Positions 6,670 through 59,368 of a stretch of DNA of 64,000 nucleotides are shown in pieces; positions within the stretch are counted from its first letter, which is position 1; every line of letters begins with the position of its first letter. This DNA comes from an uncultured Acidobacteriota bacterium (GTDB lineage: Bacteria > Acidobacteriota > Vicinamibacteria > Vicinamibacterales > SCN-69-37), in NCBI GenBank assembly GCA_963793255.1, contig CAWBZK010000005.1, positions 543 to 64,542 on the forward strand, read 5' to 3'. The notes under the pieces are model-generated. The model was not told where the DNA came from and made no database searches. It saw only the letters and a list, made by a program, of their open reading frames with translations. The position numbers and the translations under genes were made by a program.

Positions 6670-6720
6670 AAGGGGTCGGGACGATTTTTAAGTTCGACGT
6701 AAGAAGCGTCCCGACCCCTT
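6670..6720. terminator. palindromic hairpin element (copy 1) between convergent genes
   Basis: AAGGGGTCGGGACG (6670-6683) and CGTCCCGACCCCTT (6707-6720) form a perfect 14-bp stem with a 23-nt loop, followed by ATTTTGGG. It lies after the OMP stop (6660) and overlaps the last codons of the TIR gene as currently framed. Confidence 0.6.
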
Positions 6721-8907
6721 ATTTTGGGAGCCACCCTCCTTGGCGGAGGCAACACTCCACACGTTGGCGGATCGGCGCAGGTTCAGTGTCACCGGCACCC
6801 GTGGCGTCAGTTTCTCGCCAAAGATTGTCGTCGCGACGAGGCGTCGGGTAAAGGTGGCGGTCGCAGAATCGCCGTCGATTGAAGTTTTCTTGTCGTCAAG
6901 AGCGACCTCGAGGATTTTGAGGTTGCCGAAATACCTTTTCCACGCATCGGCGGAGCGCGACGGGTCGAGTTGCGCGACCGCGACGTGGTCTCGTGCGCGA
7001 AACGCGGCAACGTACCGGTCCAGCAGTTGCTCGATTTCCTTTTCCCTGGACGGAGGTGGTGGTGGTGGTGGTGGTGGTGGCGGCGACATGGTCAGGGCGT
7101 TCTTGAATCCCGTCGCCGCCTGCCAGAGAAGTGGGATGGCATCGGTCGGCGGTCTGGTCGCCGTTGGGTCATCTTGCCTTGTGCATCGACGTACGGCGCG
7201 CTCTCTCGTGCGGTCGCAGGGACTGCGTCTCGAAGGGTCTGCGCCTGAGACTGCGCTCGATTCAGAAGCGGTGCCAGGAGTTCGTCGAATCTCTTGTCTG
7301 ACGGGAACGCGCGCCTGCCGGCGGTCACCTCGCGGAACGCATCGGCGTCCGACCGATCCCGTATCGTCAATTGAACGCGTGCGAATGCGGCATCGGCCGC
7401 GGCAGCTGCCGCCTCGTAGAGACCGGCCGCCTCCAGCAAGAGCCCCACGCCCCGCGAGGTGTTCCGGCAACCACCGCCTGCTGTTCGCGACTCGCGGCAT
7501 TCGCATAGGCCTGCGTCCTGTCGGCCGGCCCGGCGGCTGTTCGGGCGGCCTCGAGCCGTGTCTTCGCCCGAGTGGCCAGCGCCGCCAGCATCCTGTCGAA
7601 CTCGCCTTCCGACGGGTATTTCAACTTCCCGTCGTCGAATCGCCTTGAGCGCCGCCGCCTGGTCGCCGCCACCGAGCAGTCGCTGGGCGTGAGCAATCGC
7701 GACCTTCGGCGAATCGATGTCCGCGGCCGCCCGATCGAACAACGCGACGGCCTCCCGAGTGAGGCCAATCGTGCTCGCGACCTGTCCGGAACTCGCCGCG
7801 GACTGTGCCTCTTTTTCCTTCGCAACCGCCAGGGCGTAGCTCGTCGAGTTGCGGACGGGCTCGGCCGCGTTCCTGGCCAGCCGGAGCTCCTCACGGGCGC
7901 GTTGGAGCAGCACGGCCAACATCGGATCGAACCGGCGCTCGGCCGGGAACTTCGCCTGTCCGTCGGAAATGGCCTTGAGCGCTTCACGGTCCCGGCGAAG
8001 ATCGAGAAGCTCTTGCGCGGCTTCAACCGCTGCGTCGGATGGGACCGGCGGTCCGGACTTTGACGAATGAGTCCGCGGCGCCCCAAAGCAGCGGGATTGC
8101 CTTGAGCGGGTCTGACGCGACGAGCTGGTTGGCCTGCTCCTCCAAGTCCGCTGCCGCCGCGAATCCAGAGGTGCCCTTGGCGCTGTCGGCCTCGGTGCGA
8201 GCTCGGGCGACTCGTTCCCGCGCGCCTGTCAGAAGCTGCTGGCGTAGGCCTATCAGGCGCGCGTTGTTCGAATCGATCTGGAACGCCGCCGAGAGCTCGA
8301 GCAGCGCCTCCTGACTCTTGCTCTCGACCACGAGCGCTTCGATTTGCTCGATCTTGCCGTCGGGAACCGTGGGGCCAGGCGTCGGTGGCCACAGCGCCAC
8401 GGTTGCAATCACAGCGACGACGGCTACGCCTCCGGCCAGCCACTGCCACCGACGGCGGAACCAGAGCAGCAGTGAGGGCTGAGGCCGAGGGGGCTGAGGT
8501 ATTGGACCAGGCCGGGGCCTCGGCACATGGTGAGCAACCCCGGCGCACAGGCCCTCGAAGTCCTCTGAGGACACGTCGTTGTCCCAACTGCTGAGATTGG
8601 CCCAGTTCTGCTGACCGAATCCAAATGGCGGACGAACGTCTTCAATGAGCGCCTGGACCAGGACGCCCCGCTTCACGCTGTGATCCGCCTCGTCCCTGAC
8701 GAACGGCGATGCGACGGAGGCTTTCGACCAGAGCACGAGCACACACGAGACTTCGTTGAGCTGGCGCTCGATCTCCTCGCGGAAGTCAACGCCCGGCCGG
8801 AGCTCGCGGTCCCACCACACGTCCCAGCCGATCGATTCGAGTGCGTGAGCAATCTGCCGCGCTCGCGGCAGGTCTTCACGCGCGTAGCTCAGGAAGATGT
8901 CGGCCAT
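6688..8907 (-). CDS. TIR-domain single-pass membrane protein with tandem helical repeats, poly-Pro hinge and NTF2/SnoaL-like C-terminal domain (frameshifted)
   Basis: The N-terminus MADIFLSYAREDLPRARQIAHALESIGWDVWWDRELRPGVDFREEIERQLNEVSCVLVLWSKASVASPFVRDEADHSVKRG fits the bacterial TIR_2 pattern. One TM helix follows (WQWLAGGVAVVAVIATVALW). Four frame changes (about 8055, 7648, 7460, 7165) join ORFs 8023-8907, 7092-7922, 7367-8587 and 6688-7506 into a protein of about 740 aa. The 3' end is uncertain (stop at 6688, or 6719 if there is a further frame error). Confidence 0.8.
7052..7084. repeat. trinucleotide microsatellite (GGT)8 flanked by GGA/GGC, encoding Pro11 on the minus strand
   Basis: ggaggtggtggtggtggtggtggtggtggcggc read directly. 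The minus-strand codons are CCG CCA x8 CCT CCG, giving 11 Pro between MS and SREKEIEQLL. Confidence 0.95.
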
Positions 8908-9108
8908 GAGGCGCGTTACTCCAGCATGCGCCAGCAGTTACCGATGGTATCGGCCAGGACGGACCGATTGTATACCTGCGCTTCGCTTGTTTGCGGACTC
9001 GATCCGCGTACGAAAAGGTAATCAGACCGGCCATTCGCGACGTGGTCGAAGGCGACGAGCGGCCGCCCCGAGTACTACGCACGATGACATTCGCTCTAGA
9101 ATCCCGCC

Positions 9109-15631: not shown

Positions 15632-16583
15632 ATGCCGATGCATCGTCGCGACTTTCTCAAGCACAGCTCCATCGCCCTTGCGACTCCGCTGTTCGCGAGC
15701 GCCCTGCCTACGAGGGCTCTGGCGGCGTCCATGCAGGCCCGCTCCCTCGAACGGGTCGGAATTGCCACGTGGAGTTTCCGGCACCTCATCGCCGCGGGCC
15801 AGCGAATCCGAAGATGCCTCCAGCGGAGCGTGCCGTCATGACGGCGCTCGACGCGCCGAAGTTCGTCCGCGAGGAGCTCGGGCTGACCCAGCTCGAGATC
15901 ATCATCAACCACCTCGACGAGCGAACCGCCGCGTACGCCGAGCGCGTCCGCGCCGCGGCGGACAAGGCCGGCGTGAAGTTCATGAACCTGCAGCTCGGCG
16001 GTCAAATGTCCGCTTCGGATCCTGCCGTGCGCGCGAAGTCCATCGCCGAGATCAAGGACGGCATGCGGATCGCGGCAGCGCTCGGCGCGCCGTCGGTTCG
16101 CGCCGACGTGGGCGGCAAGGCGGGAGAACCTCTGGATCTGGCGATTACCTCGGCTTCTTACAAGGAGCTCGCCGACTTCGGAGCGACGATTGGCGTGATG
16201 CCGATGCCCGAGAATCACGGCGGGCACAGCTCCGATCCGGACACGCTCGTGTCGATCATGCGCGCGCTCGATCCGCGCGTCCGCGCCATCGTCGATTGGG
16301 GAAATCTCCGCGTCGAGAATCAGACGCAGCGGATCGAGGGCACCCGCAAGCTGCTGCCGTACACCGGCCTCGTGTCGGCGAAGGTCGATCGCTTCGACGC
16401 CGACTATCGTCCGGGCTACGACGTCAGCGAGCTCGTACGTCTGGTGGAGTCGAGCGGGTATCGGGGCAAGTACTCGATCGAGATCACGAATCCCCCCGCC
16501 GACATCGTGCGCGGAGCGATCACCGCCAGAGACATCATCGCCAAGAGCCTGGCGAGCTGGTCAAAAACAACGCGTCGGGATGA
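15632..16583 (+). CDS. Tat-signal xylose-isomerase-like TIM-barrel protein (sugar phosphate isomerase/epimerase family), frameshifted
   Basis: AGGAGG (15622-15627) precedes the ATG. The twin-arginine signal is MPMHRRDFLKHSSIALATPLFASALP. The body lies in the 15514 frame (…ENHGGHSSDPDTL…YRGKYSIEITNP…). Frame changes lie near 15795 and near the 3' end. Confidence 0.65.
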
Positions 16584-16623
16584 GTGTTACGAAGAACGCA
16601 AAACGCATCCCGACGCGTTGTTT
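16565..16623. terminator. palindromic hairpin element (copy 2) between convergent genes
   Basis: AAACAACGCGTCGGGATG (16565-16582) and CATCCCGACGCGTTGTTT (16606-16623) form a perfect 18-bp stem with a 23-nt loop. The element sits exactly between the stops at 16583 (+) and 16625 (-). Confidence 0.6.
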
Positions 16624-16624
16624 C

Positions 16625-18907
16625 TTACTTCTTCGGCAACGCGAACGCGATGTAGCCGCGCGGCGTGTCGGCCGCGGCGGCCGCCGTCGCGCCCCGGCCG
16701 CCACCTGACGGCTGCGCGGCGACGACGATGTACTGCGTGCCCTTCGCCTCGTAGATGACTGGCACGCCGCGCGACGGGCCCGGCAGCGTGCCGGTCCACA
16801 CGACCGCGCCGGTCTCCTCGTCGTAGGCCCGCATCTTCCCGTCATTCCCAGCCATGAACACGAGGCCGGCCTTGGTCGGCATGATGCCGTTGCGCAACAT
16901 CGGCGACCCGGTGTTGGTCGGCCCGCCGTTGGCGATGGTCGTCGGATCGTCGCCGACCGGCAGCTGCCACTTGATCGTGCCCTTGTTCAGGTCGTACGCG
17001 GTCAGCGTCGCGTACGGCGGCTTGGTGGCGTTCGCCATCACGCCCCACTCGCTGACGTACCGCGTCGGTGGCACGTCCACATCGGGCGGATACGCAGCGT
17101 TCCCGCCGTTGGCGCCGTTGCCCGGATACCGTGCGCCCGCTGGCGGAGCGGCGCCGCGACCCGGCTGCGGCGGCGTCGGCGCGCCGCCGGACGCCACGAC
17201 CGGTCCGGCCGGGAACGCCCCCGCCGGCCCGCCGCCGCGGCCGAAGCCGCCGCCGCGGCCCCCGCCGGATTGTGTCGCGAGATAGCCGAGAATCGCGGTC
17301 AGCTCGATGTTGTTGATGCTCGGCACCGGCCGCATGCTGTTGTACCCGTTCATCACGGTCGCCGCGATGACGTCCTCACTCAATCGCTGGGTCGCTTCGA
17401 TGACGTTGGCCGCGTCATCGATCGGTTTGCGCGGGTCCTCGCCGTGGCACTCCGCGCAGAACTGCAACGTACGCCGCGCGTCCATCCACTTCCGATGGTC
17501 CCATCTGCACGCCGCCGACCTTGCTGTGGACGTCGTCGAGCTTCAGGATCGCCACGGCGTCGATGTTGAGCACGTAGACGATGCCCTTGGATGGATTGGC
17601 CGCGGTCGTGCCCCAGTTCGATCCGCCCTGATTGCCTGGCATGGACACCGTCTCTCGCAACGCCGGCGGCGTGAACAGTCCCTCGTTGCGCATCTTCGGA
17701 AACGCGCTGCTTCCAGTCGGCCAACTGCTCCTTCGTGAGGAGCCACGGATTGATGTCGTCGACGTGAACGTCTGACGCCCGAAGGGCGGCACGACGGTCG
17801 GAAACGGCTGCGTCGGCCAGGACTGCTCACCCGGGATGTCGGTCTGCGGCACCGGCCGCTCTTCAATCGGCCAGATGGGCGCGCCGGTGACGCGGTTGAA
17901 GACATAAAGGAAGCCGGTCTTGCCAGCCATCGCGACGATGTCGATGTTCCGCCCGTCTTTGCGGATCGTCGCAAGCTGCGGCGCCGAGACGTTGTCCCAG
18001 TCCCACAGGTCGTGATGAATGTTCTGGAAGTGCCAGAGACGCTTGCCGGTCTTCGCGTCGAGCGCGAGCAGGCAGTTGGCGAACAGGTTCGCACCGTGGC
18101 GATCGCCGCCGTAGAAGTCGTAGGTGCCTGAGCCGGTCGGCAAGTAGACGATGCCGCGCTCGTCATCGACGGTCAGCTCGCCCCAGGTGTTGGCGCCGCC
18201 GACGTATTTCCAGGCATCTTTGGGCCACGTCTCGTAGCCGAACTCGCCGGGACGCGGAATCGTGTGGAACTGCCAGGCCAGCTTGCCGGTGACCACGTCG
18301 AACGCGCGAATATCGCCCGGCGGCGACATCCACCCTTCGCCCGGCGCATTGCCGAGAATGAGCAGGTTCTTCCAGACCTTGCCGGGGTTCGGCACGCGAA
18401 TGCCGTTCTCGCCGCGCAGCATGCCCTCGCGCAGGTCGACGAAGCCATTCGACCCGAAGGTCATGATCGACTTGCCGGTCTTCGCGTCGATGGCCTGGAG
18501 GAACGGTCCGGTCGGTCAGCAGCAGGCGCTTCTCTCTGCCGTCTTCGCTCTGCCAGTAGTTGATGCCGCGCGCCGACAGACTGCAGGTTCTCGTGGATCC
18601 AGATTTCCTTGCCGGTGGTCGGATCGAGCGCGATCAGCGAGTTGTTGCGGCCCGACACGAACATCATGTCGTCGACGACGATCGGGTTGAACCCGATGTT
18701 GCCGTGCGGATAGAACCAGGCGACCTCCAACTGCTTCACGTTGGACTTGTTGACCTGGTCGAGGTCGACGAAGTGCGAGCCCGAGGGTCCCCCGCCATGG
18801 TCCCACCACCACTTCTGACTCCGGGCTGCCGTCAGGACACCCGAGGTGACCGCAAGGGTCAGCACTGCGGCGATAGAGATAAAGGTCAGGCGGGAGGAAA
18901 TCTTCAT
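16625..18907 (-). CDS. PQQ-dependent dehydrogenase beta-propeller with embedded cytochrome c domain (quinohaemoprotein), frameshifted
   Basis: Signal peptide MKISSRLTFISIAAVLTLAVTSGVLTAA. Propeller motifs include WWWDHGGGPSGSHF, NTWGELTVDDERGIVYLPTGSGTYDFYGG, HHDLWDWD and AMAGKTGFLYVFNRVTG. A haem motif (FCAECHG) is followed by the last blades (TLTAYDLNKGTIKWQLPVG … KMRAYDEETGAVVW). At least five frame changes were found (about 18572, 18500, 17765, 17703, 17480). Confidence 0.75.
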
Positions 18908-27308: not shown

Positions 27309-27347
27309 AGGAAACCGGGTTTCTTAGACTAAGAAACCCGGTTTCCT
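27309..27347. terminator. perfect 19-bp palindrome between convergent genes
   Basis: AGGAAACCGGGTTTCTTAG-A-CTAAGAAACCCGGTTTCCT read directly. It lies between the lipoprotein gene (+) and the stop of the TIM-barrel gene at 27353 (-). Confidence 0.7.
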
Positions 27348-28319: not shown

Positions 28320-30138
28320 ATGGATCGACGTCAGTTCATCTCGGCCGTGAGCGCCGCCTCGGTCGCCGCCACCGGCAGGACCGTCAAGTCCAGCGCCGCG
28401 CGCCCAGGCGATCCGGCACAGCTCGCGCCGGCGGCGGACGACCGCCTCCTCAACACCCTGACCGCGGTGAACGATCTCCAGGTCCCGGCGATTCTCGCGT
28501 CATACCAGCGTCAGATCGAGGCGCGTTCCGGCCCACGGACTCTCGCACAGAACGCTCTGCGCCTCACCGCGGCGTTCGTCAACGCCCGCGGCCGAAACTA
28601 TCGCAACGCGAGCCTTCTGGATCCCACGAACGCCCTGCTGGACGCGCTCGCCCAGCAGCAGAACGCGAGCGGCCTGTTCGACGTCGGCAACCTGGACAGT
28701 CCCCCGGACACGTCGTTTGTCATCAGCGACCTCGGCCTTGGCTACGACGTGCTCGGCCAAGGCGACCAGCAGACCATCGGCGCGACACGCGAGAGGTACG
28801 CGGCCATCATGACAGAAGGCGACCGCGGCGCTCGTCTCCGGCGGCGTGCACACGCCGAATCACCGATGGGAGATCTGCAAGGCGCTGGCGCACATCCACC
28901 ACATCTGGCCGAGCCGTGCGGTCCTCGCCCGGATCGACGACTGGCTGGGCGAAGGCATCGATCAGGACGCCGAGGGCGAGTACAGCGAGCGCAGCCCGAA
29001 CTACGCGTCCGAGGTCACCAACCGATCGCTCGTCATCGTCGCGCGGCTGGTCAGGCGGCCGGCGCTCCTCGAGCACGTCCGGCGAAACCTGGACATGACG
29101 CTCTACCGGCTGGAACCCAACGGCGAGGTCGAAACGGTGCAGTCGCGCCGCCAGGATCAGACCGGCACGCAGGACGTCTGGAAGTACCTGATGCACTACC
29201 GCGAGCTGGCGCTGGTCGCGAACGACCCGCGGTTCGCGGCCGTCGCCGAACAGATCCTCGACCGGGTCGCGGCCGACCCCGCGTCGTTCGCAGGCGCCGG
29301 CTACTCCGTGGGCGACTTCCTGGCCGAGGCACTCGCCTATCCCGAGCTCGCGGCGGCACTGCCAAGCCCTGCGAATCTGCCGACGACCTACGAGAAGTTC
29401 TTCGCGGGTTCGCGGCTCGTGCGCCTCCGCCGCGACGACGTCACGGCGAGCATCTTCGGCGGAACCGACTCGCACGACATTCGCGAGATCGCCTCCGGGC
29501 TGTCCACCAACCCGACGTTCTTCAAGCTTCGCAAGGGCGCCGCGATCCTCTCATCCGTGCGGATGTCACCGAGCTTCTTCAGCATGGGCCACTTCCGGAG
29601 TGATGGCGTGACGCCGGTCGGTGGCGGGTGGCGGCTGAGCGAGACCGTACGGGTGCCGTATCACCTGCCGCTTCCCGCGCGGTACCGCCGCCGGAACGGC
29701 GACTACGCACTCGCGTCCGAGGGCCGGTTCTACTCCAGCATGGATTTCGCGCATCGGCCCAAGCAGTACTGCGAGCTGAACACGGCGATCACGATCACGG
29801 AGGTCGGCCGGGGCGGCTTCGACCTCGAGTTCGACGTGAACGGTCAAAGCACCTCGCTCACGATCGAGCTCTGCTTCCGGCCCGGCGGAACGTTCACCGG
29901 CGTGGTGCCCGTCGACCGGCGATGGCAACTTCCAGCTGGTCGAGGGGAACGGCACCTACACGGTCGGCCAGGATGTCATCACCTTCGGTCCGGGAAACGG
30001 ACGGAGGCATTCTCCAGCCCGTCCGCATGGACGCCGGTGAGAAGTACCTGGTACCTCGGCGGCAGCCTGGTCCCGCCCGGTCAACGCGTGTACATCACCG
30101 GGCGCGTCCCGTTTCGCTACACGCTGCGACTGCGCTGA
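28320..30138 (+). CDS. Tat-signal hypothetical protein (possibly alpha/alpha-toroid, heparinase II/III-like), frameshifted
   Basis: Starts MDRRQFISAVSAASVAATG. A helical N-terminal half contains GGVHTPNHRWEICKALAHIHH, and the C-terminal half is beta-rich. Frame changes lie near 28830 and 29930. The family suggestion is weak. Confidence 0.4.
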
Positions 30139-30146
30139 CGCGATTC

Positions 30147-30293
30147 ATTGCGGATCTGTGATCTGCGATTGACGATTGCATCGGGTCATCGTGGAATGCG
30201 GATTGAGGATTGACAGCGTCTCGTCCAATCCTCCGATCTCGCAATCATCAATGGCCCAATGCAATCCGCCATCACAGATCGCAGATCCTCAAT
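30147..30293. repeat. long imperfect inverted repeat built from GATTG/CAATC-containing words
   Basis: Best-paired segments are 30203-30214 (GAGGATTGAC) with 30223-30233 (GTCCAATCCTC), and 30171-30189 (GACGATTGCATCGGGTCAT) with 30251-30270 (ATGGCCCAATGCAATCCGCC). ATCACAGATC-type cores also appear in the outer arms. The repeat fills the convergent gap between stops 30138 (+) and 30289 (-). Confidence 0.6.
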
Positions 30294-30690
30294 TACCTGC
30301 CCGGTCAACAAATATCCAGGCATGGTCGGCATTCGACTCGTGGATCAACGTCACGGTAACGAGGACGGCGCCGGTGGGAAACGGGAACGTAAACGGAAAG
30401 ACGTCCCGAAGCTGGCCAAGCTCAATGCCTCGGTGAAACCGCGCCGCGAACGACGGCACGTTTGTACACGGCGCGATCTCCGTGAAGAAATGCCGGCCGA
30501 TGACCTCCGACGGCGTTCGGCCCGCAAGCCGCGCTTCCGCCGCGTTGTAGGCGAGCACCTTTCCGCTCTTGTCGACCTTGATGACGCCAAACGGCAGCTT
30601 GTCGAGCTCCCCGGGCGTGAGGTGCGTGACCTCACGAAGGCGCTTGAGCAGGACGATGGAGTCCGTCGCCGGGTTGTGGGGATCGTCCAT
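30289..30690 (-). CDS. pyp: photoactive yellow protein (PYP) homologue
   Basis: Uninterrupted 133 aa. LPFGVIKVDKSGKVLAYNAAEARLAGRTPSEVIGRHFFTEIAPCTNVPSFAARFHRGIELGQL…WIFVDR aligns from memory with Halorhodospira PYP ([63 protein letters not shown]…WVFVKR). The chromophore Cys in the APCT context is retained. Confidence 0.85.
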   Translation of the reverse strand: MDDPHNPATDSIVLLKRLREVTHLTPGELDKLPFGVIKVDKSGKVLAYNAAEARLAGRTPSEVIGRHFFTEIAPCTNVPSFAARFHRGIELGQLRDVFPFTFPFPTGAVLVTVTLIHESNADHAWIFVDRAGN

Positions 30691-30786
30691 GTCGCCACTC
30701 TAGCACCGCCGGTCGCCGCTCCCCGTGCATGTCCACGCACCGCGTCAGGTATCGGCGCACTGAATCCGTAGTCTGTGTAAGTGATC

Positions 30787-30830
30787 AGCGAAAGGGCCTC
30801 GCGTCGTCGCAGACGCGAGGCCCTTTCGCT
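30787..30830. terminator. GC-rich hairpin downstream of the DUF1080 gene
   Basis: AGCGAAAGGGCCTCGCGTC (30787-30805) and GACGCGAGGCCCTTTCGCT (30812-30830) form a perfect 19-bp stem with a 6-nt loop. A T/A run flanks the stem (TTTTGG on the plus strand). Confidence 0.65.
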
Positions 30831-30867: not shown

Positions 30868-31758
30868 TTAGAGCGTGCGGATCCGGAGATTCCGGTACTG
30901 CACCTTCCCGACAAAGCCACCGGCTTCGCCGAACGGCTGGAGCGAGATCGGCGCCGGTGCGGCCCAGCTCTCTTCGCCCGCCATCAGCTTGTCCGTGACG
31001 TCCGTGATCTGCTTGTCGTTCAGCCAGATCTGGAGACGGTCGCCCTTGAACATGACGCGCAGGTGGTTCCAGTCGTTCTTGTGGCGGATCTCGGGGAACT
31101 GGCTGCAGTCCTGGAGGTACGTGCGGTTCTTGCCGCCGCAATCACCGGTCGAGAGCCAATCGACGTTGCCGCGGATGGACTCGCCCGGGATCACGCGGTG
31201 CATGACGACGCCGACGTACTCACCGGCTTCGCGGCGTCCGAGGTTCAGCTGGTAGCCGCTGCGAAAGTAGATGCCGCTGTTGGCGAGACACGACGCGTCC
31301 TTGCTCAGGTTCTGTTCCTGCGCCATCTGACCTGACCGCGCGTTGACTTTCTCACCCAGCTTCGCCGTGCAGTCCGCGTCGGGTGCTTCGTCGAGCTTGT
31401 AGTCGAGCTCGAGCTCGAAGTCGTGGAACTTGGCCTCCGTCGACAACGTGCCGCCGCGCCCACCGCCAGGAATCGGCGCGTTCGTGACGATGTTGTTGGC
31501 GATGCTCCAGCCGCGATCGGTGGGATTGGTCGAGAGCGGTGCCGCTGGCGCGGCGGGCGCTGGCGCTGCCGCAGCGGCACCACCCCCACGCGGGCCGGCG
31601 CCGGCCGCCCGGGCCGCGCTCCCAAAGCCGTTGGCTTGACCACCGCCGATCGTCCAGCCGGTAAAATCCTTGCCGTTGAAGAGTGGCGTCCAGGCGCCCT
31701 GCGCGAGCAAGGGTGTGGCCACTGCCGAAACCAGACAGGCAAATAACAGCCGTTTCAT
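30868..31758 (-). CDS. DUF1080 (3-keto-disaccharide hydrolase family) domain protein
   Basis: Uninterrupted 296 aa from MKRLLFACLVSAVATPLLAQG. Family signatures: WTPLFNGKDFTGW, NSGIYFR, WNHLRVMFKGDRLQIWLND, GKVQYRNLRI. It contains the low-complexity insert GFGSAARAAGAGPRGGGAAAAAPAPAAPAAP. Confidence 0.75.
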   Translation of the reverse strand: MKRLLFACLVSAVATPLLAQGAWTPLFNGKDFTGWTIGGGQANGFGSAARAAGAGPRGGGAAAAAPAPAAPAAPLSTNPTDRGWSIANNIVTNAPIPGGGRGGTLSTEAKFHDFELELDYKLDEAPDADCTAKLGEKVNARSGQMAQEQNLSKDASCLANSGIYFRSGYQLNLGRREAGEYVGVVMHRVIPGESIRGNVDWLSTGDCGGKNRTYLQDCSQFPEIRHKNDWNHLRVMFKGDRLQIWLNDKQITDVTDKLMAGEESWAAPAPISLQPFGEAGGFVGKVQYRNLRIRTL

Positions 31759-31771
31759 GTGGATACCTCGA

Positions 31772-32491
31772 ATGAAGATGATGCGGACGCGGAATTTTAC
31801 AGCAGTGCTCGCCTTTGTGGGTGTGTCGATCGCGCTGGCCCAGGCGCCTGAGCCGATCCTCTGGACATTCGACCGGCTCGACACCATCGGCGGGTTCAAG
31901 ACGACGGTCGAAGGCGCGCCGAGGGTCATCGACACGCCAGTGGGCAGAGCCCTCGAGTTCGATGGCGTGGATGACGCCGTCTGGATCGAGAAGCACCCGC
32001 TCGCCGGCGCCGCCACGTTCACCTTCGAAGCGATCTTCCGACCCGATGGCGGCGCGTTCGAGCAGCGCTGGTTCCACCTGGCCGAGCGAGACCCCAAGAC
32101 CGGGCTCCTGGCCTCTGCGGATCATCCGACGACCGGCCAAGACGCCAATTCGCGATTTCTGTTCGAGCTGCGCATTGTCGGGGACCAGTGGTATCTCGAC
32201 GCGTTCGTCAACGGGCCAGGCTACAACCAGGCGCTGATGTTCAAGGACAAGCTGCACCCGGTCGGGCAGTGGTATCACGTGGCCCAGACCTACGACGGCA
32301 AGACGTTCAAGAGCTACGTGAACGGCGTGCTGCAGGGACAGGCGGAGATTCGGTTCACGCCGCAGGGCGAGGGTGCCGCGTCGCTCGGCGCGCGCATCAA
32401 TCGCCGCAACTACTTCAAGGGCGCGATTCGGCTGGCGCGCTTCACGACGCGCGCGCTCACGCCCGATCAGTTTCTGACGCTTCGCAACTAG
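31772..32491 (+). CDS. LamG/concanavalin-A-like lectin-fold secreted protein
   Basis: Uninterrupted. Signal peptide MKMMRTRNFTAVLAFVGVSIALAQA. The pattern ALEFDGVDDAVWI…TFEAIFRPD…WYHVAQTYDGKTFKSYVNGVL…FKGAIRLARF is typical of Laminin_G_3-like domains. The start codon choice (31757/31772/31778) is uncertain. Confidence 0.6.
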   Translation: MKMMRTRNFTAVLAFVGVSIALAQAPEPILWTFDRLDTIGGFKTTVEGAPRVIDTPVGRALEFDGVDDAVWIEKHPLAGAATFTFEAIFRPDGGAFEQRWFHLAERDPKTGLLASADHPTTGQDANSRFLFELRIVGDQWYLDAFVNGPGYNQALMFKDKLHPVGQWYHVAQTYDGKTFKSYVNGVLQGQAEIRFTPQGEGAASLGARINRRNYFKGAIRLARFTTRALTPDQFLTLRN

Positions 32492-34106: not shown

Positions 34107-34882
34107 ATGGATCTCGGTCTCTCAGGAAAAGTCGCGATCGTCACCGGCGCGAGTCGAGGCCTCGGGCGGGCGATCGCGCAGACGCTCTCGTCCGAAGGCA
34201 TGAAGATCTCGGCTCGCCGCGCGTTCGAAGGATCAGCTCGACGATCTCGCGACCTCGCTCGGAACTGACTGTCTGGTTCACGCGGTCGATCTGCGCACGG
34301 CGGACGCCGCCGAGGCGGTCGTAGAGGCGACGGTCGGGAAGTTCGGCAGGATCGATCTGCTGGTCAACAATGCGGGCGCCACCAAGCGCGGTGACTTCTT
34401 CCAGCTGACCGACGCCGACTGGGAAGACGGGTTCGCGCTGAAGTTCTTTGGCGCGATGCGCCTCTCGCGCGCCGCCTGGACGCACCTTGCGGCGAGCCAC
34501 GGCAGCATCGTCAACATCATCGGCATCGGCGGGCGCACGGGTAGTGCCGAGTTCGCCATCGGCGGCAGCGTCAACGCAGCGTGCCAGCTGCTCACGAAAG
34601 CGCTCGCCGATCGGGGCGTCAAGGACGGAGTGCGCGTCAACGCGATCAACCCCGGGTCGATCAAAACAGGCCGCCTTGCGGCGCGCCTGAAGAGCTTCGC
34701 CGCCGAGCACAACATCGATCCCTCAGAGGCCGAGGCGGCCGATGGCGAAGGCGAGCGGGGTCTCGCGCTTCGGTGAGCCGTCAGAGATCGCCGCCGCCGT
34801 GGCGTTCCTGGCGTCGCCGGCCTGCGCGTTCTGTCACGCCGCGCTGCTCGACATCGACGGTGGACAGACGAAGACGCTGTGA
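34107..34882 (+). CDS. short-chain dehydrogenase/reductase (SDR), frameshifted
   Basis: Motifs: GKVAIVTGASRGLGRAIA, LVNNAG, and ...SVNAACQLLTKALA... where the catalytic YxxxK is expected (no Tyr readable here, possibly a frame or sequence error). C-terminus FGEPSEIAAAVAFLASPA…DGGQTKTL-stop. Two or three frame changes (about 34210, 34760). Confidence 0.8.
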
Positions 34883-34998: not shown

Positions 34999-36073
<1,075 letters not shown>

Positions 36074-44935: not shown

Positions 44936-46052
44936 AGCAGGTCTCCTGGGCCGGCCATCGCCGGCACCATCTCGACGTGAGGTCGGGCAAAAGCGACACC
45001 GTCGAACAGCACGCGAGCCGTCCTGGACAAGACCCGCGCGGGTCACGATTGGGCGCTCGCCGCGCCGGTCCAACTCGAGGCTGACGGTGAACTCGCCGGT
45101 CGGATGCTCCACCGAGAGTGCGACGGTGTCGGCCAGCGTCACGACCGCGATGCCGTCGGCCACCGAGCCGGGCAGCACGCAGGCCGTCGCCACCGACACG
45201 GCGCCAAACACACCGATTGACGTATGACACGTACGTGGAATGAACGTGCGGGTCGCAACAGACCCACCGTGGGTCGGCGCGGCGATGAGGCTGATCTTGG
45301 GCACGACGGCGTCCGTCACATCGCCAAGGTTCATCATCGGCCCAGCGGCGAGGCGAATGCGCTCGAGACGCGCCTTCAGGCGAACGTCGGCGTTCAGCTC
45401 AGCCACGCTTTCGTAGCCGGAGATGCCGACAGTGGCCGCCGGGATGACAATCACCGGCATGCCGTTGTCGATGCACGTGACCTCGACCTCGTCGATCTCG
45501 TCACGAACATGTCCGGTTGGCAGGAGCGCGCCGCACGACGAGCCTGCGGCGTTCTCGAAATACACCTGGATCGGTGCGCTGGCCCCAGGCACGCCGTCGA
45601 TCCTCGCCTCGCCGTCGTAGGTGACCTGCCGGCCAGGTGTTTTGACGATCAGATCGGCGACCGTGCCGGTGTTGAGCGTCCGTACCCGGACGTTCGTCGT
45701 GCCATCCTGCGCCGGCACGAGCCCACGCTCAATCGCGAACGGGCCGACGCCAGCCAGGATGTTGCCGCAATTCGGAGAGGTATCCACGATGGGTCTGATC
45801 GACGCTGACTTGCGCGAAGAGAAAGTCGACGTCGATGCCGGGCCGCGATGACTTCTGGACGATGGCGACCTTGCTGCGCAGTGGATGTCCGCCGCCGAGC
45901 CCGTCGATCTGCGCAGGGTCCGGTGAGCCCATGAGCGTGAGCAGCATCGCGTGGCGCCGCGCAGGATCGTCCGGCAGATCCTCGGCCAGAAAGTAGGCAC
46001 CTTTCGACGTGCCGCCGCGGATCAACATGCAACGGACCGGAGTCTGGGTCAT
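44932..46052 (-). CDS. PrpF-family isomerase, GalD-like 4-oxalomesaconate tautomerase, frameshifted
   Basis: Starts [27 protein letters not shown]. Also SPNCGNILAGVGPFAIERGLV and …TCHTSIGVFGAVSVATACVLPGSV… Frame changes lie near 45790 and 44990. Confidence 0.7.
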
Positions 46053-46793
46053 GTCCGGCCGTTGCCGGCGGCCCCGAGGCGCTCGCGGCCGCGGTGAAGC
46101 CGGCGCGCCGGCCCGAAATCCCGCGGCCAGAAACGGCACCAGGTGGCGAAGCGTCGCTTCGATGTCGCCCGGATCACATCGGCCGCGCGAAAAGGTCTTG
46201 ATGCGCTGCGGGCTGGCGGCCGAGTAGTAGATCGTGCCGAGCATGAAGTGGAAGCGCCACAGGATCTCGTCGGGCGGCAGATCGGGAAGGCACTCGCGGA
46301 GCGCCGCGACGAACGTCCGGCTGGACAGATCGAAGTTGTCGGCCACCAGCTGATTCAGAAGCGCCGAGTCCTCGGCCGCCAGCATCGCGCGCAGCCGGCT
46401 GAACGTGCTCTGGCCGCCGAGACTCTGAATCTCTGCGAGCGCCGGCCGAACGAACGCCTCGATCACCGCCTCGAGCCTCGTCTCGCTGCGCCGGGCGTCG
46501 GCCAGCAGCTTCAGGCGCTCGGCATTCAGCGTGCTGCAGTGCCGGCGGTAGACCTCCGACAGCAGGCCTTCCTTGCCCCGGAAGTGGTAGCCCACGAGCG
46601 ACCAGTTCACGCCAGCCGCCGCGGCAATCGCGCGAACGGAGACTTTCGTGTAGCCGCGCTCCGCGAACAGATGTTCGGCGGCGGAGAGCAGCCGCGCCCG
46701 CGTATCGGCCGCAGGCGGACGGGAAGGGCTCCATGTGTCAGGCTGCGGGTGGGTCACGCGGAGAGCATACAGCCGGATTGCACAAGTGTTCAA
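46049..46793 (-). CDS. TetR-family transcriptional regulator, frameshifted near the 3' end
   Basis: The HTH region reads [48 protein letters not shown]. The start is at 46793 or the GTG at 46757. As sequenced it reads in frame into the PrpF gene. A one-base correction gives a stop overlapping the PrpF ATG. Confidence 0.7.
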
Positions 46794-46816
46794 ACCACCT
46801 GTATGATTCGGCGCCG

Positions 46817-47543
46817 ATGAACCAAGCGTCGAAGTCCGTGCTCGTGTTCAGTGCCCATGCGGCCGATTTTGTCTGGCGCGCTGGGGGCGCCATCGCGCTC
46901 TACACCTCGCGAGGCTGGCGCGTGCGCATACTCTGCCTCTCGTTCGGTGAGCGCGGTGAGAGTCAGGGCGTCTGGAAGCAACCGGGGATGATGCTCGATC
47001 GCGTCAAGAAGATCAGGCGAACGGAGTCGAAGCAGGCCGCGACGCTTCTCGGCGCCGAGGTGGAGTTCTTCGACGCCGGCGACTACCCGCTTCGCCCCTC
47101 CGACGAACTGCTCGACCGCCTGGTCGCAGAGTATCGGTCGTGCCAGCCGGACATTGTCCTGACCCATTCGGCCAGCGACCCATACAACCCCGACCACCCG
47201 GCGGCACATCAGATTTCCCTGCAGGCACGCGTGTACGCGCAAGCCGAGGGATACCCCGCCGCGGGTTCCCCGCTCGGCGCGCCGCCGGTCTTCATGTTCG
47301 AGCCTCACCAGCCCGAACGCTCGCGGGTTCATGCCCGACGTCCTGCTGGACATCACGTCGGTCTGGGACCAGAAGCGAAAAGCCATGGAGTCCATGGAGG
47401 CGCAAGGCCACCTCGTCGACTACTACGCGGATCTCGGCCGGCGCCGTGGCGCGCAGGCGGTCCGCAACTCCGGACGGAAGACGATCAAATACGCCGAAGC
47501 ATTCCAGCGCGTGTTTCCACAGGTCACGGGAGACCTGGCGTGA
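46817..47543 (+). CDS. PIG-L/LmbE-family hydrolase, GalB-like 4-oxalomesaconate hydratase, one frameshift
   Basis: Blocks [40 protein letters not shown] and FEPHQPE / [34 protein letters not shown]. Frame change near 47315. Confidence 0.7.
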
Positions 47544-48220: not shown

Positions 48221-49171
48221 TGAACAGGAGGGACGCGTTGTCACTGATGGCGGCAGGATTTGGAGGCGCGATCGCGCAACAACCGGCCACGTCGGGCATC
48301 GTTCCGGATATTCCCGCTCCCGATCCGGCCCCACGCGTTCCGTCGTTCAAGGCACCTCCACTGGCGTGCGACACGCACTGCCACGTGTTCGGGCCGGTCG
48401 ATCGATATCCGTACGCCGCTTCCAGGCCGTACACGCCGCCGGAAGCTCCGTTCGATGCCTGCCGGGCGCTGCACAAGCGGCTCGGTGTCTCGCGCGCCGT
48501 CATCGTGAACGCGACGCCGTACGGGCGCGACAATCGCGCGATGATCGACGCCATCGCGGCGAGCGGCGGCGCAGTATCGCGGCATCGGCAACATCGATGA
48601 GCGCATGACCGATCGCGAGCTTGAAACACTGGCCGCCGGCGGAGTCGACGGCTGCCGGTTCACTTTTCTTGCCCGCCTTGGCGGACGCCCCGACATGGCC
48701 GCGTTCGATCGGATCGTCGCGCGAATTGCTCCCCTCGGCTGGCACGTCGATCTGTATCTCGACGCGAGGGATCTGACCGAGCTCGCGCCGCGCCTCGAGA
48801 AGCTGCCCCTGCCGTACGTCATCGATCACATGGGCCTCGTCGACGCTTCGGCTGGGCTTCGGCAGCTCGCATTCAGGTCGCTCGTGGCCTTGGCGGTCCG
48901 CGATGAGAAATGTTGGGTGAAGATCAGTGGGCCGGAGCGCATCTCGAAAGTTGGCCCTCCGTTTCACGACGCGGTGCTGTTTGCGAAGACACTGATCGAG
49001 GCCGCGCCCGATCGGGTGCTCTGGGGGACCGACTGGCCTCACCCGAACGTCCCCTACATGCCGAACGACGGCGATCTCGTGGACCTCGTGCCGCTGTTCG
49101 CGCCGACCGCGGATCTGCAGCAACGCCTCCTCGTCGCGAATCCCGCCACGCTGTACCGATTCAGCCATTGA
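48220..49171 (+). CDS. Amidohydrolase_2-family lactonase, LigI-like 2-pyrone-4,6-dicarboxylate hydrolase, with Tat-like N-terminus, one frameshift
   Basis: The start overlaps the upstream stop (TGATG). Starts [20 protein letters not shown]. Also ACDTHCHVFGPVDRYPY, YGRDNRAMIDAI and …WGTDWPHPN… Frame change near 48590. Confidence 0.65.
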
Positions 49172-49207: not shown

Positions 49208-50438
49208 GTGCTGGCCATGGCGGCGGGCGTGCTGCTCGGACACTTCGCGCCGGCGGCCGGCGAGCGGATGCAGCCGCTGGGCGACGCGTTCATCAAGGCG
49301 ATCCGGATGCTCATCGCACCGATCGTGTTCACGACGGTCGTGCTGGGCATCGCCAACATGAACGACATGGCCCGAGTCGGGCGGGTCGCGATCAAGGCGT
49401 TGATCTATTTCGAGGTGGTGACCACCGTCGCGCTCGTTCTGGGACTGCTGGTGGTCAACCTCTGGAAGCCGGGCGCCGGCATGAACGTCAATCCCGATGG
49501 TCTTGATACCAGCGCGGTGGCGTCCTACGTCGCCCGGGCGCCGCAGGAAGGGCCTCGTCGCGTTTCTCCTGCAGATCATTCCGAACACGGTGTTCGGCGC
49601 ATTTACCGACGGCCACGTGCTGCAGGTGCTGTTTCTCTCGGTGCTCTTCGGCGCGGCGCTCGTGGGGCTCGGCGACCACGGCCGGCCCGTCGCGACGCTC
49701 CTCGAGTCCCTGTCACGAATACTCTTCCGCGTCGTATCCATCGTCATGTGGGCGGCGCCGATTGGCGCCTTCGGCGCGATGGCCTTCACCGTTGGCCGAT
49801 ATGGCACCGGTGCGCTCTGGTCGCTCGGCAATCTGCTCGTGTGCTTCTACGTCACGTGCCTGGTGTTCGTCGTCGCCGTGCTGGGTCCGATTGCGCGCTT
49901 CTGCGGGTTCAGGCTCTGGGGCCTCATTCGGTACATCCGTGAGGAGTTGCTGATTGTGTTCGCAACGACCTCGTCGGAAACCGTGCTGCCGCGCATGATT
50001 ACGAAACTCGAGCGCCTCGGCTGCCGCAAGGACGTCGTCGGTCTCGTGATCCCGACGGGGTACTCGTTCAACCTCGACGGTACGTGCCTCTATCTCGCGA
50101 CGGCGACGGTGTTCCTGGCACAGGCGACCAACACGCCGCTCGATCTCGGACAGCAATTGGGGCTGCTCGCCGTGCTGTTGCTGACGTCGAAGGGCGCCGC
50201 CGGTGTGGCCGGCGCGGCGTTCGTCGTGCTGGCAGCGACCCTGTCCACTGTGGGTCACATTCCAGTGGCCAGTGTCGCGTTGATCCTCGGGATTCACCGG
50301 CTCATGTCCGAGGGTCTGACGCCCACCAATCTCATCGGCAACGCGGTCGCGACGATTGCGGTCGCAAAGTGGGAAGGCGCGTTGGACGAGTCCGTGCTCC
50401 ATCGCGAGCTCGCGGGCCGCGCGTCTGTCGATGGCTAG
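49208..50438 (+). CDS. dctA: dicarboxylate/amino-acid:cation symporter (DctA-like), frameshifted
   Basis: DAACS motifs: [57 protein letters not shown]. Frame change near 49540. The true start probably lies a few codons upstream (…LWIQVVLAM…), with no clear start codon as sequenced. Confidence 0.8.
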
Positions 50439-50522
50439 GGCACGTTCGGTGAAGAAGGCTTGCAGGTATATGCTCGTCGCGGCCTCGACCACGAGTGGCC
50501 GCGGCGGCACAGGAGGTTCAAG

Positions 50523-52527
50523 ATGCGATCGTTCAAGCACGTCGTGAATGCCGCGGCGCTGACAGGTATCGCGGTAGCTCTGCTGACGCTCGGCGTTCGA
50601 GCGGCAGATCCGCCGGAATTCAAGCCGGACGCTTCGTTCAAGGGATCGGTGCTGACCGGCTGGCGCACGGTCGGCCAGGCGCAGTGGCGCGCCGAGAACG
50701 GCGAGATCATCGGCCGCGCGACTGCCGGCGGCAATGGCGGCTGGCTGGTCATGGACAAGGAATTCCAGGACCTGCTCTTCTACACGAACCTTCGCTGCGA
50801 GGGCAGCTGCAAGACAGGCGTGCTGCTTCGCGCTGAGAAGACGCCCGACGGCGGCATGAAGGGCGTGTATGTGTCGCTGACCGACGGCGACTTCGCGACC
50901 TACAAGGTCACCATCGACGCGCAGGGCGTCGAGACGAGCCGCACTCCGGTCGTCGCGGCGGCCCGCGGAGGCGGCGCGGGCGGTCGTGCCGGCGCGCCGT
51001 CCCGCCGGCGCTCCCGCCGCCGGTGCTCCGGCTGCCGGTGCGCCAGCCGCTGGTGCTCCGGCCGCTGGTGCCCCCGCGGGCGCCGGCGCCGCGCCTGCCG
51101 GCGGACGTCGCGGTGGCGGCGGCGGTGGTGGTGGAGGCGGACGCGGCGGCGCGCCCGCGATCACCGCGCTGAAGCCGGGCGAGTGGAACCCGCTCGAGAT
51201 CCTCGTGTCGGACGAGACCGTACGCGCCTCGATGGGCGGCGGCGGATCGATCGCCGAGCCGGGCTACGGCAGCGTCGCGCTGTACATCGGGGGCACGGGC
51301 GAAGTGCGCTACAAGGACGTCGCGTGGAAGGACCTCATCGCGCTGACGCAACCCAAGGAACAGTTGTCGAACCGGTTCACGGCCGTGCGCATCAGCGATT
51401 TCTATTACGGCTGGTCGGCGGCCGCGTCGGACATCAATCATGACGGCGTGATGGACGTCGTGTCCGGGCCGTTCTACTACCTCGGGCCGACGTTCGCGGA
51501 CCGCAAGATCTATCGCACGAGCCGCGTCTACAACCCGGGCACCGAGTACGCGCCCGACATGGTGAACTTCACCGCGGATTTCACGGGCGACGGTTGGCCG
51601 GACATCCTCGCGTCGGACATGGTCGGCGGCCGGCCGATGGATCTCTACGTCAATCCGAAGGGGCAATCACGCCGCTGGGATCATGCCCGCGTGCTGCCGG
51701 TGATCTCGACGGAGCTCGTTCTCATGCGTGATCTCGACGACGACGGCAAACCGGAAATCATCTTCGGCGGCGGAGGGGCCTATTCGTGGGCGCGCCCCGA
51801 TCCGGTGAATCCGATGGCGGTCTGGACGTCGCACAACGTCTCCAAGGCGGGTGAACGCGTGGTCGGCCACGGCATCGGCGTTGGCGACGTCAACAGCGAT
51901 GGACGTCAGGACATCGTGGTGCCGACGGGCTGGTACGAGCAGCCGCCGAAGGGCAGCATGGATCAGCCGTGGACGCTGCATCCGGCCGAGTTCGGCAACG
52001 GCGGCGGTGAAATCGGCGCGTACGACGTCAACGGCGACAAGCTCACGGACGTCGTGACGAGTCTCGCCGCGCACGACTTCGGGCTCGCCTGGTTCCAGCA
52101 GAAGAAGGGCGCCGACGGCAGCGTCACGTGGGAGAAGCACGAGATCGCGGAAGACTTCTCCACGAAGAACGCCGGCGACGTCGTGTTTTCTGAACCGCAC
52201 GCATCCAGATTTGCCGACATGAACGGCGACAAGATTCCCGACTTCATCGTGGGCAAGCGGTACTGGTCGCACCTCGAGAACTACAACGGCCCGGATCCGT
52301 ACGGCCCGGCGGTGGTCTACATCTATCGCACGGTGCGCAATCCCAAGGCGCCTGGCGGCGCAGAGTTCGTGCCCGAGCTCGTGCACAACCGGTCAGGCGT
52401 GGGTTCGGCGTTCGAAGTCCTGGATCTGAACAAGGACGGGCGGCCGGATATTGCCGTCGCCGGCGCGTACGGGACGCACGTGTTTCTGAGCAAGCCGGCC
52501 GCCGCCGCGGCCGCTCCCGCACGCTGA
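50523..52527 (+). CDS. secreted DUF1080 domain + FG-GAP/VCBS beta-propeller protein (paralogue 1), one frameshift
   Basis: Signal peptide MRSFKHVVNAAALTGIAVALLTLGVRA. The DUF1080 half (FKGSVLTGWRTVGQAQWRAENGEIIG…CKTGVLLRAE…GEVRYKDVAWKDL) is interrupted by a long Ala/Gly/Pro/Arg insert. FG-GAP-like repeats follow (DINHDGVMDV, DFTGDGWPDI, DLDDDGKPEI, DVNSDGRQDI, DVNGDKLTDV, DMNGDKIPDF, DLNKDGRPDI). Frame change near 50985. Confidence 0.7.
51011..51085 (+). repeat. tandem 15-nt repeat (4-5 copies) encoding (AGAPA)n
   Basis: The units GCTCCCGCCGCCGGT / GCTCCGGCTGCCGGT / GCGCCAGCCGCTGGT / GCTCCGGCCGCTGGT / GCCCCCGCGGGCGCC were read directly. They are followed at 51101-51150 by a GGC/GGT run encoding GGRRGGGGGGGGGGRGG. 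Confidence 0.9.
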
Positions 52528-53553: not shown

Positions 53554-53556
53554 CAC

Positions 53557-55300: not shown

Positions 55301-55340
55301 TGGGAGAATACGCACGGTCTTCTTTTCATTCGGGGGTTGT

Positions 55341-57331: not shown

Positions 57332-57364
57332 GAAGTTAGAAGTTAGAAGTTAGAAGTTAGAAAG
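57332..57364. repeat. tandem heptamer GAAGTTA x4 plus a partial copy
   Basis: gaagttagaagttagaagttagaagttagaaag was read directly, starting 3 nt after the stop at 57329. Confidence 0.9.
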
Positions 57365-57367
57365 CAA

Positions 57368-57430
57368 AAGGCAGAAGTTCGAAGGACCGAACGCGGCCCT
57401 TCTGACTTCTGCCTTCCGACTTCTGCCTTA
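57368..57430. terminator. hairpin with duplicated 3' arm in a convergent intergenic region
   Basis: AAGGCAGAAGTTCGAAGG (57368-57385) pairs with CCTTCTGACTTCTGCCTT (57398-57415), with two central mismatches. A second copy of GACTTCTGCCTT lies at 57418-57429, followed by CAGGCTTTTTTAAGCG. Confidence 0.5.
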
Positions 57431-59347: not shown

Positions 59348-59368
59348 ACGGTCCAGGAGCACACGCAC

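Follow-up and report, generated by a model that had tools for sequence, protein, structure and literature searches.

The 64-kb stretch of DNA given above, which we refer to as a whole as the window, contains on its minus strand an open reading frame (ORF) that had been described in the initial annotation as an intact, 133-amino-acid homologue of photoactive yellow protein (PYP). The ORF listing, a profile search, the predicted fold and a phylogenetic tree all bear this out. The gene, here named pyp, and the parts of it that code for the putative chromophore surroundings are located as follows.

30289-30690, minus strand: pyp coding sequence, 133 codons plus a TGA stop, with an ATG start (ORF listing and sequence)
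30466-30549, minus strand: codons of the chromophore pocket, with Tyr48 (30547-30549), Glu52 (30535-30537), Ala56, Arg58 and Cys75 (30466-30468)
30370-30399, minus strand: the beta4-beta5 segment F98-P-F-T-F-P-F-P-T-G107, specific to the sub-clade of the query protein according to the alignment

The start codon is unambiguous, since an in-frame TAG is located three codons 5' of the ATG. The product is a single-domain protein consisting of an N-terminal helical cap (approximately residues 11-29) and a PAS core (residues 34-130), and the decisive pocket codons can be read directly in the DNA as TGT for Cys75, TAC for Tyr48 and GAA for Glu52.

For identification of the protein family, all PDB chain sequences were searched with phmmer, which resulted in 33 PYP-type matches with E-values from 4.4e-27 to 1.2e-19, comprising Halorhodospira halophila PYP and its mutants, the PYP domain of Ppr and the engineered FAST proteins. 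No other PAS domain appeared at E<0.01, and the only other matches under this value were three tethered-protease constructs that are irrelevant in this context. The Ppr PYP domain was the best match (E=4.4e-27), with H. halophila PYP at about 8e-25. Residues 23-130 of the query align without gaps to residues 17-124 of H. halophila PYP with an offset of +6, and this alignment confirms the earlier assignment of Y48, E52, R58 and C75 as the equivalents of Tyr42, Glu46, Arg52 and Cys69, as well as that of A56 to Thr50 and the deviating Met100 region, where T106 takes the place of Met100. With the PYP model TIGR02373, aligned from profile position 18 only, the query scored 116.6 bits (E=6.8e-34), and the generic PAS models gave 19.6 bits (PAS S-box) and 37.6 bits (Pfam PAS, PF00989), with E-values between 1e-3 and 1e-9.

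An AlphaFold2 model of the query, built on 13 sequences (pLDDT 81.9, pTM 0.75), shows the N-terminal helical cap followed by a five-stranded PAS core. When this predicted model was compared with the PDB by means of Foldseek, the top 40 places were taken without exception by structures of PYP, Ppr or FAST, at E-values from 5e-14 to 7e-10 with a TM of about 0.8 and an rmsd of about 1.5 Å, and the first generic PAS domain, with 18% identity, ranked after these 40 at E=2.8e-7; the lead of the PYP structures over generic PAS domains is thus roughly 7 orders of magnitude in E-value.

Conservation of the pocket was assessed in an alignment of 167 sequences, made up of the query, the relatives ranked highest in an exhaustive search, the homologues from related loci and two reference PYPs. 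Using the H. halophila numbering, Cys69 is found in all 167 sequences, Glu46 in 160 and Tyr42 in 154. The query retains Phe62, Ala67, Phe92, Phe96 and Trp119 among the pocket and aromatic residues, and its p-coumaric acid (pCA) pocket and aromatic array consist of I37, F68, I72, A73, P74, F98, F102 and W125, where I72 represents a Val66 to Ile change with an Ile state common to 52 of the 167 sequences. The exchange of Thr50 for Ala had been pointed out as a peculiarity, which it is not: Ala is the commonest residue at position 50 in our alignment (72/167) as well as the published family consensus, and Met100, which only 46 of the 167 sequences possess, has been described as a naturally variable tuning site (Dohmen et al. 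2025, PMC12826048). Published surveys regard Cys69 as defining for functional PYPs and ask for at least one of Tyr42 and Glu46 (Xing et al. 2022, PMC9664959; Dohmen et al. 2025, PMC12826048). The query has Cys69 together with both Tyr42 and Glu46, the pocket, clustering with PYPs in sequence and the predicted PYP fold.

The initial annotation had proposed a phylogeny and a TIGR02373 search as checks. In a bootstrapped neighbor-joining (NJ) tree, rooted on two generic PAS domains of which one was taken from the histidine kinase of the window itself, the query is placed well inside the PYP ingroup and not among generic PAS domains. The profile search had a divided outcome, as the match is highly significant but falls below the curated cutoff (116.6 versus 143.05 bits), a point to which we return below. 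Collectively, sequence, predicted fold and pocket residues identify the ORF as encoding a genuine member of the PYP family.

Within the tree the query belongs to a sub-clade (P0001-P0008) with 99-100% bootstrap support, while deep nodes, including the placement of the sub-clade relative to the published clades A, B and C, have bootstrap values of 17-40%. Contrary to the published description of clade C, Phe92, Phe96 and Trp119 are all present in the query. The sub-clade is marked by its beta4-beta5 segment, which reads FPFTFPFPxG in P0001-P0007 and FPFTFRFPGG in P0008, compared with FEYTFDYQMT at positions 92-101 of H. halophila PYP; in the query this means that Phe92 and Phe96 are kept, that Tyr94 and Tyr98 are both changed to Phe, and that Met100 is changed to Thr. 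The signature strings of the sub-clade and of L001, a locus from an Acidobacteria metagenome-assembled genome (MAG), were not found in the complete published alignment of 984 sequences, and the nearest published Acidobacteriota PYP is 51% identical to the query.

It is clear from comparison with related loci that pyp is maintained. The same 133-amino-acid protein is encoded on L015, an independent contig of megahit/short-read style from a different ENA sample, and over the 402-nt coding sequence the two genes have 4 differences, all of them synonymous, and 0 non-synonymous ones. The upstream spacer of roughly 180 nt differs by about eight substitutions and two single-base indels. Ratios of dN/dS were computed for L015, L018 and L016 (against L001 dS was saturated) and amounted to 0.06 for L018 (84% amino acid identity) and 0.14 for L016 (68%), with synonymous sites near saturation (dS >1.6) in both of the latter comparisons. 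The pyp gene is under strong purifying selection, with dN/dS values of 0-0.14. The cluster at 90% identity contains 18 near-identical members, mostly of 133 amino acids, from many JGI and ENA metagenomes, one of which was named "photoactive yellow protein" by JGI.

The surroundings of pyp contain three further elements of interest.

30697-30705, minus strand: extended -10-like motif TGCTAGAGT, 6 nt before the pyp ATG and containing the in-frame stop TAG
30787-30830, no strand assigned: upstream hairpin with a perfect 19-bp stem and a 6-nt loop, between a DUF1080-type hydrolase gene and pyp
30145-30294, no strand assigned: downstream hairpin of 150 nt, near-perfect, reaching from the pyp stop codon to the convergent plus-strand gene that ends at 30138

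The -10-like motif recurs in diverged relatives (dS >1.6), as TGCTACAGT located 7 nt before a GTG in L018 and as TGCTAGAAT located 10 nt before a GTG in L016. No Shine-Dalgarno sequence was found ahead of pyp, and a strict sigma-70 promoter scan found no promoter at the pyp flanks. The conserved motif suggests that pyp has a promoter of its own and that its mRNA is leaderless or nearly so. With respect to start codons, we observed that the starts annotated for P0007 (114 aa) and P0008 (136 aa) are probably incorrect (L018, about 400-446; L016, about 8700-8730). When read from the GTG, the N-terminus in both L018 and L016 takes the form (V/M)-D-x-P-x-N-P, matching MDDPHNP in the window, and the annotated ATG in L016 is situated inside the conserved promoter-like motif TGCTAGAAT.

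The predicted folding energy of the upstream hairpin is -43 kcal/mol (z -8.0) for the minus strand and -46.4 kcal/mol for the plus strand, and L015 has a compensatory G:C to A:T change in the stem, a double change that points to selection on the stem itself. The hairpin probably marks the end of the upstream DUF1080-type gene or terminates its transcription, and similar gene-end hairpins were observed at about 6670-6720, 16560-16628, 27309-27347 and 57354-57429. The downstream hairpin, with 54-nt arms that are 78% complementary (-85.2 kcal/mol, z -9.3), greatly exceeds the window's other gene-end hairpins in length. No second copy of it was found in the window, and over approximately its first 35 nt the sequence is the same in L015. 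Rfam families around pyp were limited to two sub-threshold miRNA-precursor matches on this long hairpin, as expected of a generic hairpin. Candidate functions are a bidirectional terminator shared by both genes and stabilisation of the mRNA; alternatively, the hairpin may be a palindromic, possibly mobile, insertion. The description of pyp as flanked by terminators thus holds as far as strong hairpins are present on both sides, but neither of them is T-tailed in the direction of the gene and a scan for consensus terminators found none at the pyp flanks.

The flanking genes encode unrelated exported proteins, according to Pfam matches and to signal peptides read from the translations:

Neighbour: xylose-isomerase-like TIM-barrel protein with a TAT signal
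Neighbour: protein with a TAT signal and no Pfam match
Neighbour: DUF1080/3-keto-disaccharide hydrolase, upstream of pyp
Neighbour: Laminin_G_3 protein
Neighbour: Amidohydro_2 protein

These neighbours carry signal or TAT peptides, in agreement with the previous placement of pyp between unrelated exported enzymes. No neighbour or signalling partner is conserved across the relatives, the contexts of which differ: GH3, Peptidase_S66 and GHMP kinase genes in L016, a transposase in L018, a 2OG oxygenase and a molybdopterin oxidoreductase around P0004, and a sigma-70 factor, an amine oxidase and a PAS-SpoIIE phosphatase in L001, while the DUF1080 neighbour is common only to the near-identical L015. 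On the basis of the flanking hairpins, the variable neighbours in relatives and the conserved -10-like motif we regard pyp as a stand-alone gene. In L001 (7727-11612; 60% identity), pyp directly follows flavin amine-oxidoreductase and sigma-70-family genes and is convergent with the gene for the PAS-SpoIIE (PP2C) phosphatase, an arrangement that could constitute a signalling neighbourhood and is not common to the window.

The chromophore of PYP requires tyrosine ammonia-lyase (TAL) and p-coumaroyl-CoA ligase (pCL), and the reported lack of both genes in the 64 kb is upheld by our searches: a six-frame regular-expression search detected neither the MIO motif "ASGD" nor the AMP-binding signature PS00455, and among about 50 ORFs distributed over the window none matched PF00221 or PF00501 in Pfam scans. 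An operon of the H. halophila type (pyp-pcl-tal) is accordingly not found in the window. Among 14 related loci, no MIO motif occurs within 10 kb in any and the AMP-binding motif occurs in only one. It had been held that these genes are often linked to pyp, which would make their absence notable, but the surveys do not support this view. TAL is found no more than five genes away from at least 10% of PYP genes, and pCL near at least 30% (Xing et al. 2022, PMC9664959), and among 113 predicted pyp operons TAL is present in 5% and pCL in 32% (Dohmen et al. 2025, PMC12826048). Missing linked chromophore genes are therefore the majority state for PYP genes, and uptake of p-coumarate from the environment has been explicitly raised as a possibility (Dohmen et al. 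2025, PMC12826048).

Taking these data together, we consider it likely that the ORF encodes a functional stand-alone, single-domain PYP in a probable soil Acidobacterium. By analogy with H. halophila PYP, p-coumaroyl-CoA would be used to attach p-coumarate as a thioester at Cys75, with the chromophore phenolate hydrogen-bonded by Tyr48 and Glu52. Blue light would then cause trans-cis isomerisation, Glu52 would donate a proton to the chromophore, and the PAS core and the N-terminal cap would partly unfold into a signalling state acting on a partner encoded elsewhere. Synthesis of p-coumarate and the CoA ligase would depend on unlinked genes, unless the acid is acquired from plant litter, and transcription would probably proceed from the extended -10 promoter belonging to pyp itself and produce a leaderless mRNA. 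Absorbance at 451 +/- 13 nm has been given for the four Ala50 PYPs that have been characterised (Dohmen et al. 2025, PMC12826048), and the Ala at position 50 leads us to expect an absorbance maximum at about 435-465 nm. Similarly, dark recovery is expected to be slow, because Met100, the proposed catalyst of re-isomerisation (Xing et al. 2022, PMC9664959), is replaced by Thr.

Several observations weigh against this assignment. The score of 116.6 bits is under the TIGR02373 equivalog cutoff, an NCBI naming rule set at 143.05 bits for the whole protein; no TAL or pCL gene is present in the 64 kb, so that the chromophore supply is a presumed one; the proline-rich FPFTFPFPTG segment beside the chromophore is without characterised precedent; no signalling partner adjoins pyp, the nearest being a Ser/Thr kinase with PD40 repeats and an ECF sigma factor, encoded in other transcription units at a distance of 4-6 kb; the promoter and leaderless reading is drawn from a 9-nt motif in three lineages; and the photoreceptor function of the query is, like that of any Acidobacteriota PYP, a predicted one. 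Some of these points would also suit a conserved and functional protein of PYP fold that is not a p-coumarate photoreceptor and instead binds another small aromatic ligand, or acts as a sensor of exogenous plant phenolics or as a redox sensor through Cys75. The lack of TAL and pCL in the window and in nearly all related loci speaks for such a protein, as do the unusual loop beside the chromophore without Met100, the probable soil host with neighbours encoding exported carbohydrate and amidohydrolase-type enzymes, and the neofunctionalisation proposed for some PYP homologues (Xing et al., PMC9664959). The homologues for which neofunctionalisation was proposed have, however, lost Cys69, Tyr42 or Glu46, whereas the query keeps all three along with Arg52 and the aromatic pocket. 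Furthermore, unlinked chromophore genes prevail among accepted PYPs, and all triad-intact PYPs expressed so far (12 with a determined lambda-max) bind pCA (Dohmen et al. 2025, PMC12826048). We therefore find a protein of this kind rather unlikely.

The failed cutoff could also be taken, in combination with the Pfam PAS threshold that the query does pass and with the frequent long spurious ORFs in a window of 66% GC, to indicate a generic PAS domain with superficial likeness to PYP or even a chance ORF. As calibration of TIGR02373 we obtained 225.5 bits for H. halophila PYP, 144.9 for MBV8518919 (Acidobacteria), 136.1 for MBP6704633 (Vicinamibacteria), 118.0 for L001, 113.2 for P0008, 99.6 for Geothrix and 78.2 for BCS33364 (Luteitalea). 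MBV8518919 is named PYP by NCBI, while MBP6704633 and BCS33364 belong to the published PYP set and are below the cutoff and not named PYP; accepted published PYPs thus score between 78 and 145 bits, and according to Xing et al. (2022, PMC9664959) no more than about 20% of the PYP homologues are recovered by the model. The cutoff accordingly bears on automatic naming and not on family membership, and proteins like the query can escape such naming because they score below it. The 116.6 bits to the PYP model versus 19.6-37.6 bits to the generic PAS models, the many orders of magnitude by which both the sequence and the fold searches of the PDB separate PYPs from other PAS domains, the position in the NJ tree and the dN/dS values well below 1 refute a generic domain or a chance ORF, which we hold to be next to impossible. 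A decaying or mis-assembled gene, with an intact ORF and triad that would be lost on polishing, is suggested by the many split or truncated neighbouring genes and by a C-homopolymer in the spacer that differs in length from L015. For the PYP ORF this is refuted by the identical protein on L015, with nothing but the four synonymous differences, and by the 18-member cluster of mostly 133-amino-acid proteins; the concern that the triad might vanish on polishing is answered by its presence on that independent contig, and we consider decay or mis-assembly highly improbable. The preferred interpretation thus remains that of a functional stand-alone PYP.

Regarding the host, the evidence comes from gene content and from the nearest PYP relative. 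The window contains two permease genes of the ADOP family (TIGR03434), a family named for Acidobacteria, one scoring 646.8 bits against a cutoff of 622.3 and one an N-terminal fragment. The nearest taxonomically labelled PYP relative stems from an Acidobacteria MAG (60% identity). The Acidobacteria-like context noted earlier is supported by these two observations in a suggestive, not conclusive, manner. The composition of pyp gives no sign of a recent horizontal transfer, as its GC content (62%) and third-position GC (GC3, 0.78) are not distinctive from those of the neighbours (63-67% and 0.79-0.89).

That pyp is one of the few genes without a frame break fits with the state of the remaining window, where many of its neighbours are split or truncated. 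In the convergent neighbour (28320-30138) the reading frame shifts near 28.85 kb, the break in a PQQ dehydrogenase lies at about 17.4-17.5 kb, further split genes are those for a phosphodiesterase, a cupin and an ABC-2 permease, and the ORFs for an SDF transporter, an Amidohydro_2 protein, an SDR protein and an aldo-keto reductase are truncated, starting in the middle of the Pfam model. Sites of this kind, with ORFs that overlap or that are cut short, were recorded at 1677-2974, 16628-18515, 28320-30138, 34204-34773, 35002-35886, 45732-46847, 48545-49168, 49485-50435, 53554-55297 and 59348-60801, and one ORF of the window fuses a TetR regulator to the N-terminus of PrpF. The breaks represent either indel errors of long-read assembly or widespread pseudogenisation, and the C-homopolymer difference relative to L015 hints at assembly errors. 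Elsewhere in the window, a TIR-domain protein (8026-8937, minus strand) has a TIR_2 match, a weak ThsB_TIR match, a proline-rich linker and a C-terminal region without Pfam match. The 3-keto-disaccharide hydrolase (DUF1080) domain is present in 30871-32121, 50439-52524 and 55254-57326, two of which are fused or adjacent to FG-GAP repeats; these genes are a locally expanded family of exported proteins.

In the wider family, the exhaustive search produced 601 clusters (50% identity) at E<=1e-10, and the PYP family is therefore large in metagenomes. The Acidobacteriota PYPs are located in at least three separate places of the tree.

Tree group 1: the group of the query together with MBV85xxxxx and Vicinamibacteria sequences
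Tree group 2: Holophagae, with Geothrix and Holophagaceae
Tree group 3: Luteitalea and Bryobacterales, beside Bacteroidota sequences

Such scattering fits with the multiple horizontal acquisitions of PYP that have been proposed (Xing et al. 2022, PMC9664959). In Geothrix terrae, Geothrix paludis and a Holophagaceae MAG (L004 10001-10348, L006 10001-10306 and L008 10001-10351), as well as in a Planctomycetota MAG (MBP1772329.1 of the 2025 alignment), we observed that the N-terminal cap is replaced by a zinc-ribbon-like CxxC...CxxC arrangement, e.g. VLCAWCGTLIGQSGVDHSHGICRSCY; the word "zinc" does not occur in the main text of the 2025 survey (PMC12826048). As the Geothrix species are cultured strains, their PYPs are open to experimental testing. 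Another architecture is seen in P0013, a chemoreceptor-like protein of 1174 amino acids with four tandem C-terminal PYP domains that each have Tyr42, Glu46 and Cys69, and P0020 and P0022 have two PYP domains each.

As a speculative extension, the sub-clade of the query and P0001-P0008 could be a soil-specific PYP lineage of TAL-less hosts that scavenge p-coumarate from rotting plant matter, so that light would be reported only when lignin-derived phenolics are present, with Thr100 and the proline-rich loop giving an unusually long-lived signalling state. This picture draws on the lack of linked chromophore genes and on the uncharacterised loop, and we think it improbable that it is correct.

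The presence of PYP in Acidobacteriota and the unlinked TAL and pCL genes are already known, and the gene arrangement is typical. The surveys list 789 PYP homologues in ten phyla including Acidobacteria, most of them single-domain (Xing, Gumerov and Zhulin 2022, PMC9664959), and 984 homologues of which 2.4% are from Acidobacteriota, with more than 20 Acidobacteriota accessions from Blastocatellia, Pyrinomonadaceae, Holophagae, Bryobacteraceae, Vicinamibacteria and unclassified MAGs in the taxonomy table (Dohmen et al. 2025, PMC12826048). The statement that a stand-alone PYP is not well documented in this lineage can thus not be maintained, and a specialist would be surprised neither by its presence in the phylum nor by the missing TAL and pCL genes. 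New, but minor, are the uncatalogued sub-clade, the FPFTFPFPxG loop, Thr100, the TIGR02373 score below cutoff and the conserved -10-like motif. While there is little meaning beyond cataloguing, our analysis adds one well-supported and strongly conserved sub-clade, found in many soil metagenomes, to the known Acidobacteriota PYPs, and the natural combination of Ala50 and Thr100 with an unusual loop makes the query a reasonable candidate for expression among them.

Compared with H. halophila PYP (PDB 2PHY/1NWZ), the query is likewise a single-domain protein of about 125-133 amino acids with the same predicted fold (TM 0.81-0.86, rmsd 1.5 Å), and it keeps Tyr42, Glu46, Arg52, Cys69, Phe62, Ala67, Pro68, Phe92, Phe96 and Trp119. 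It differs in being only 37-39% identical, in having Ala50, Phe94, Phe98, Thr100 and the proline-rich beta4-beta5 segment, in the unrelated sequence of its N-terminal cap, and in lacking a pyp-pcl-tal operon. The Ppr PYP domain of Rhodospirillum centenum (PDB 1MZU) is closer in sequence (44-48% identity), with the motif FFTE(V/I)APCTN(I/V)P in both proteins, but Ppr is a fusion of PYP, bacteriophytochrome and histidine kinase with Ser50 and Met100, whereas the query stands alone. Thermochromatium tepidum Ppd-PYP, Leptospira biflexa PYP and the Rhodobacter PYPs have Ala50 in common with the query; they belong to other clades and architectures and are likened to it by position 50 only. The published Acidobacteriota PYPs MBV8518919.1 and MBV8543682.1 ("Acidobacteria bacterium") and MBP6704633.1 (Vicinamibacteria; Data Set S3) resemble the query in their single-domain architecture, identical triad, 46-51% identity and position in the same broad and weakly supported region of the tree. 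Unlike the query they keep Met100 (FDFKMAP) and have higher TIGR02373 scores (144.9 and 136.1 bits), and the sub-clade of the query lies outside the published alignment.

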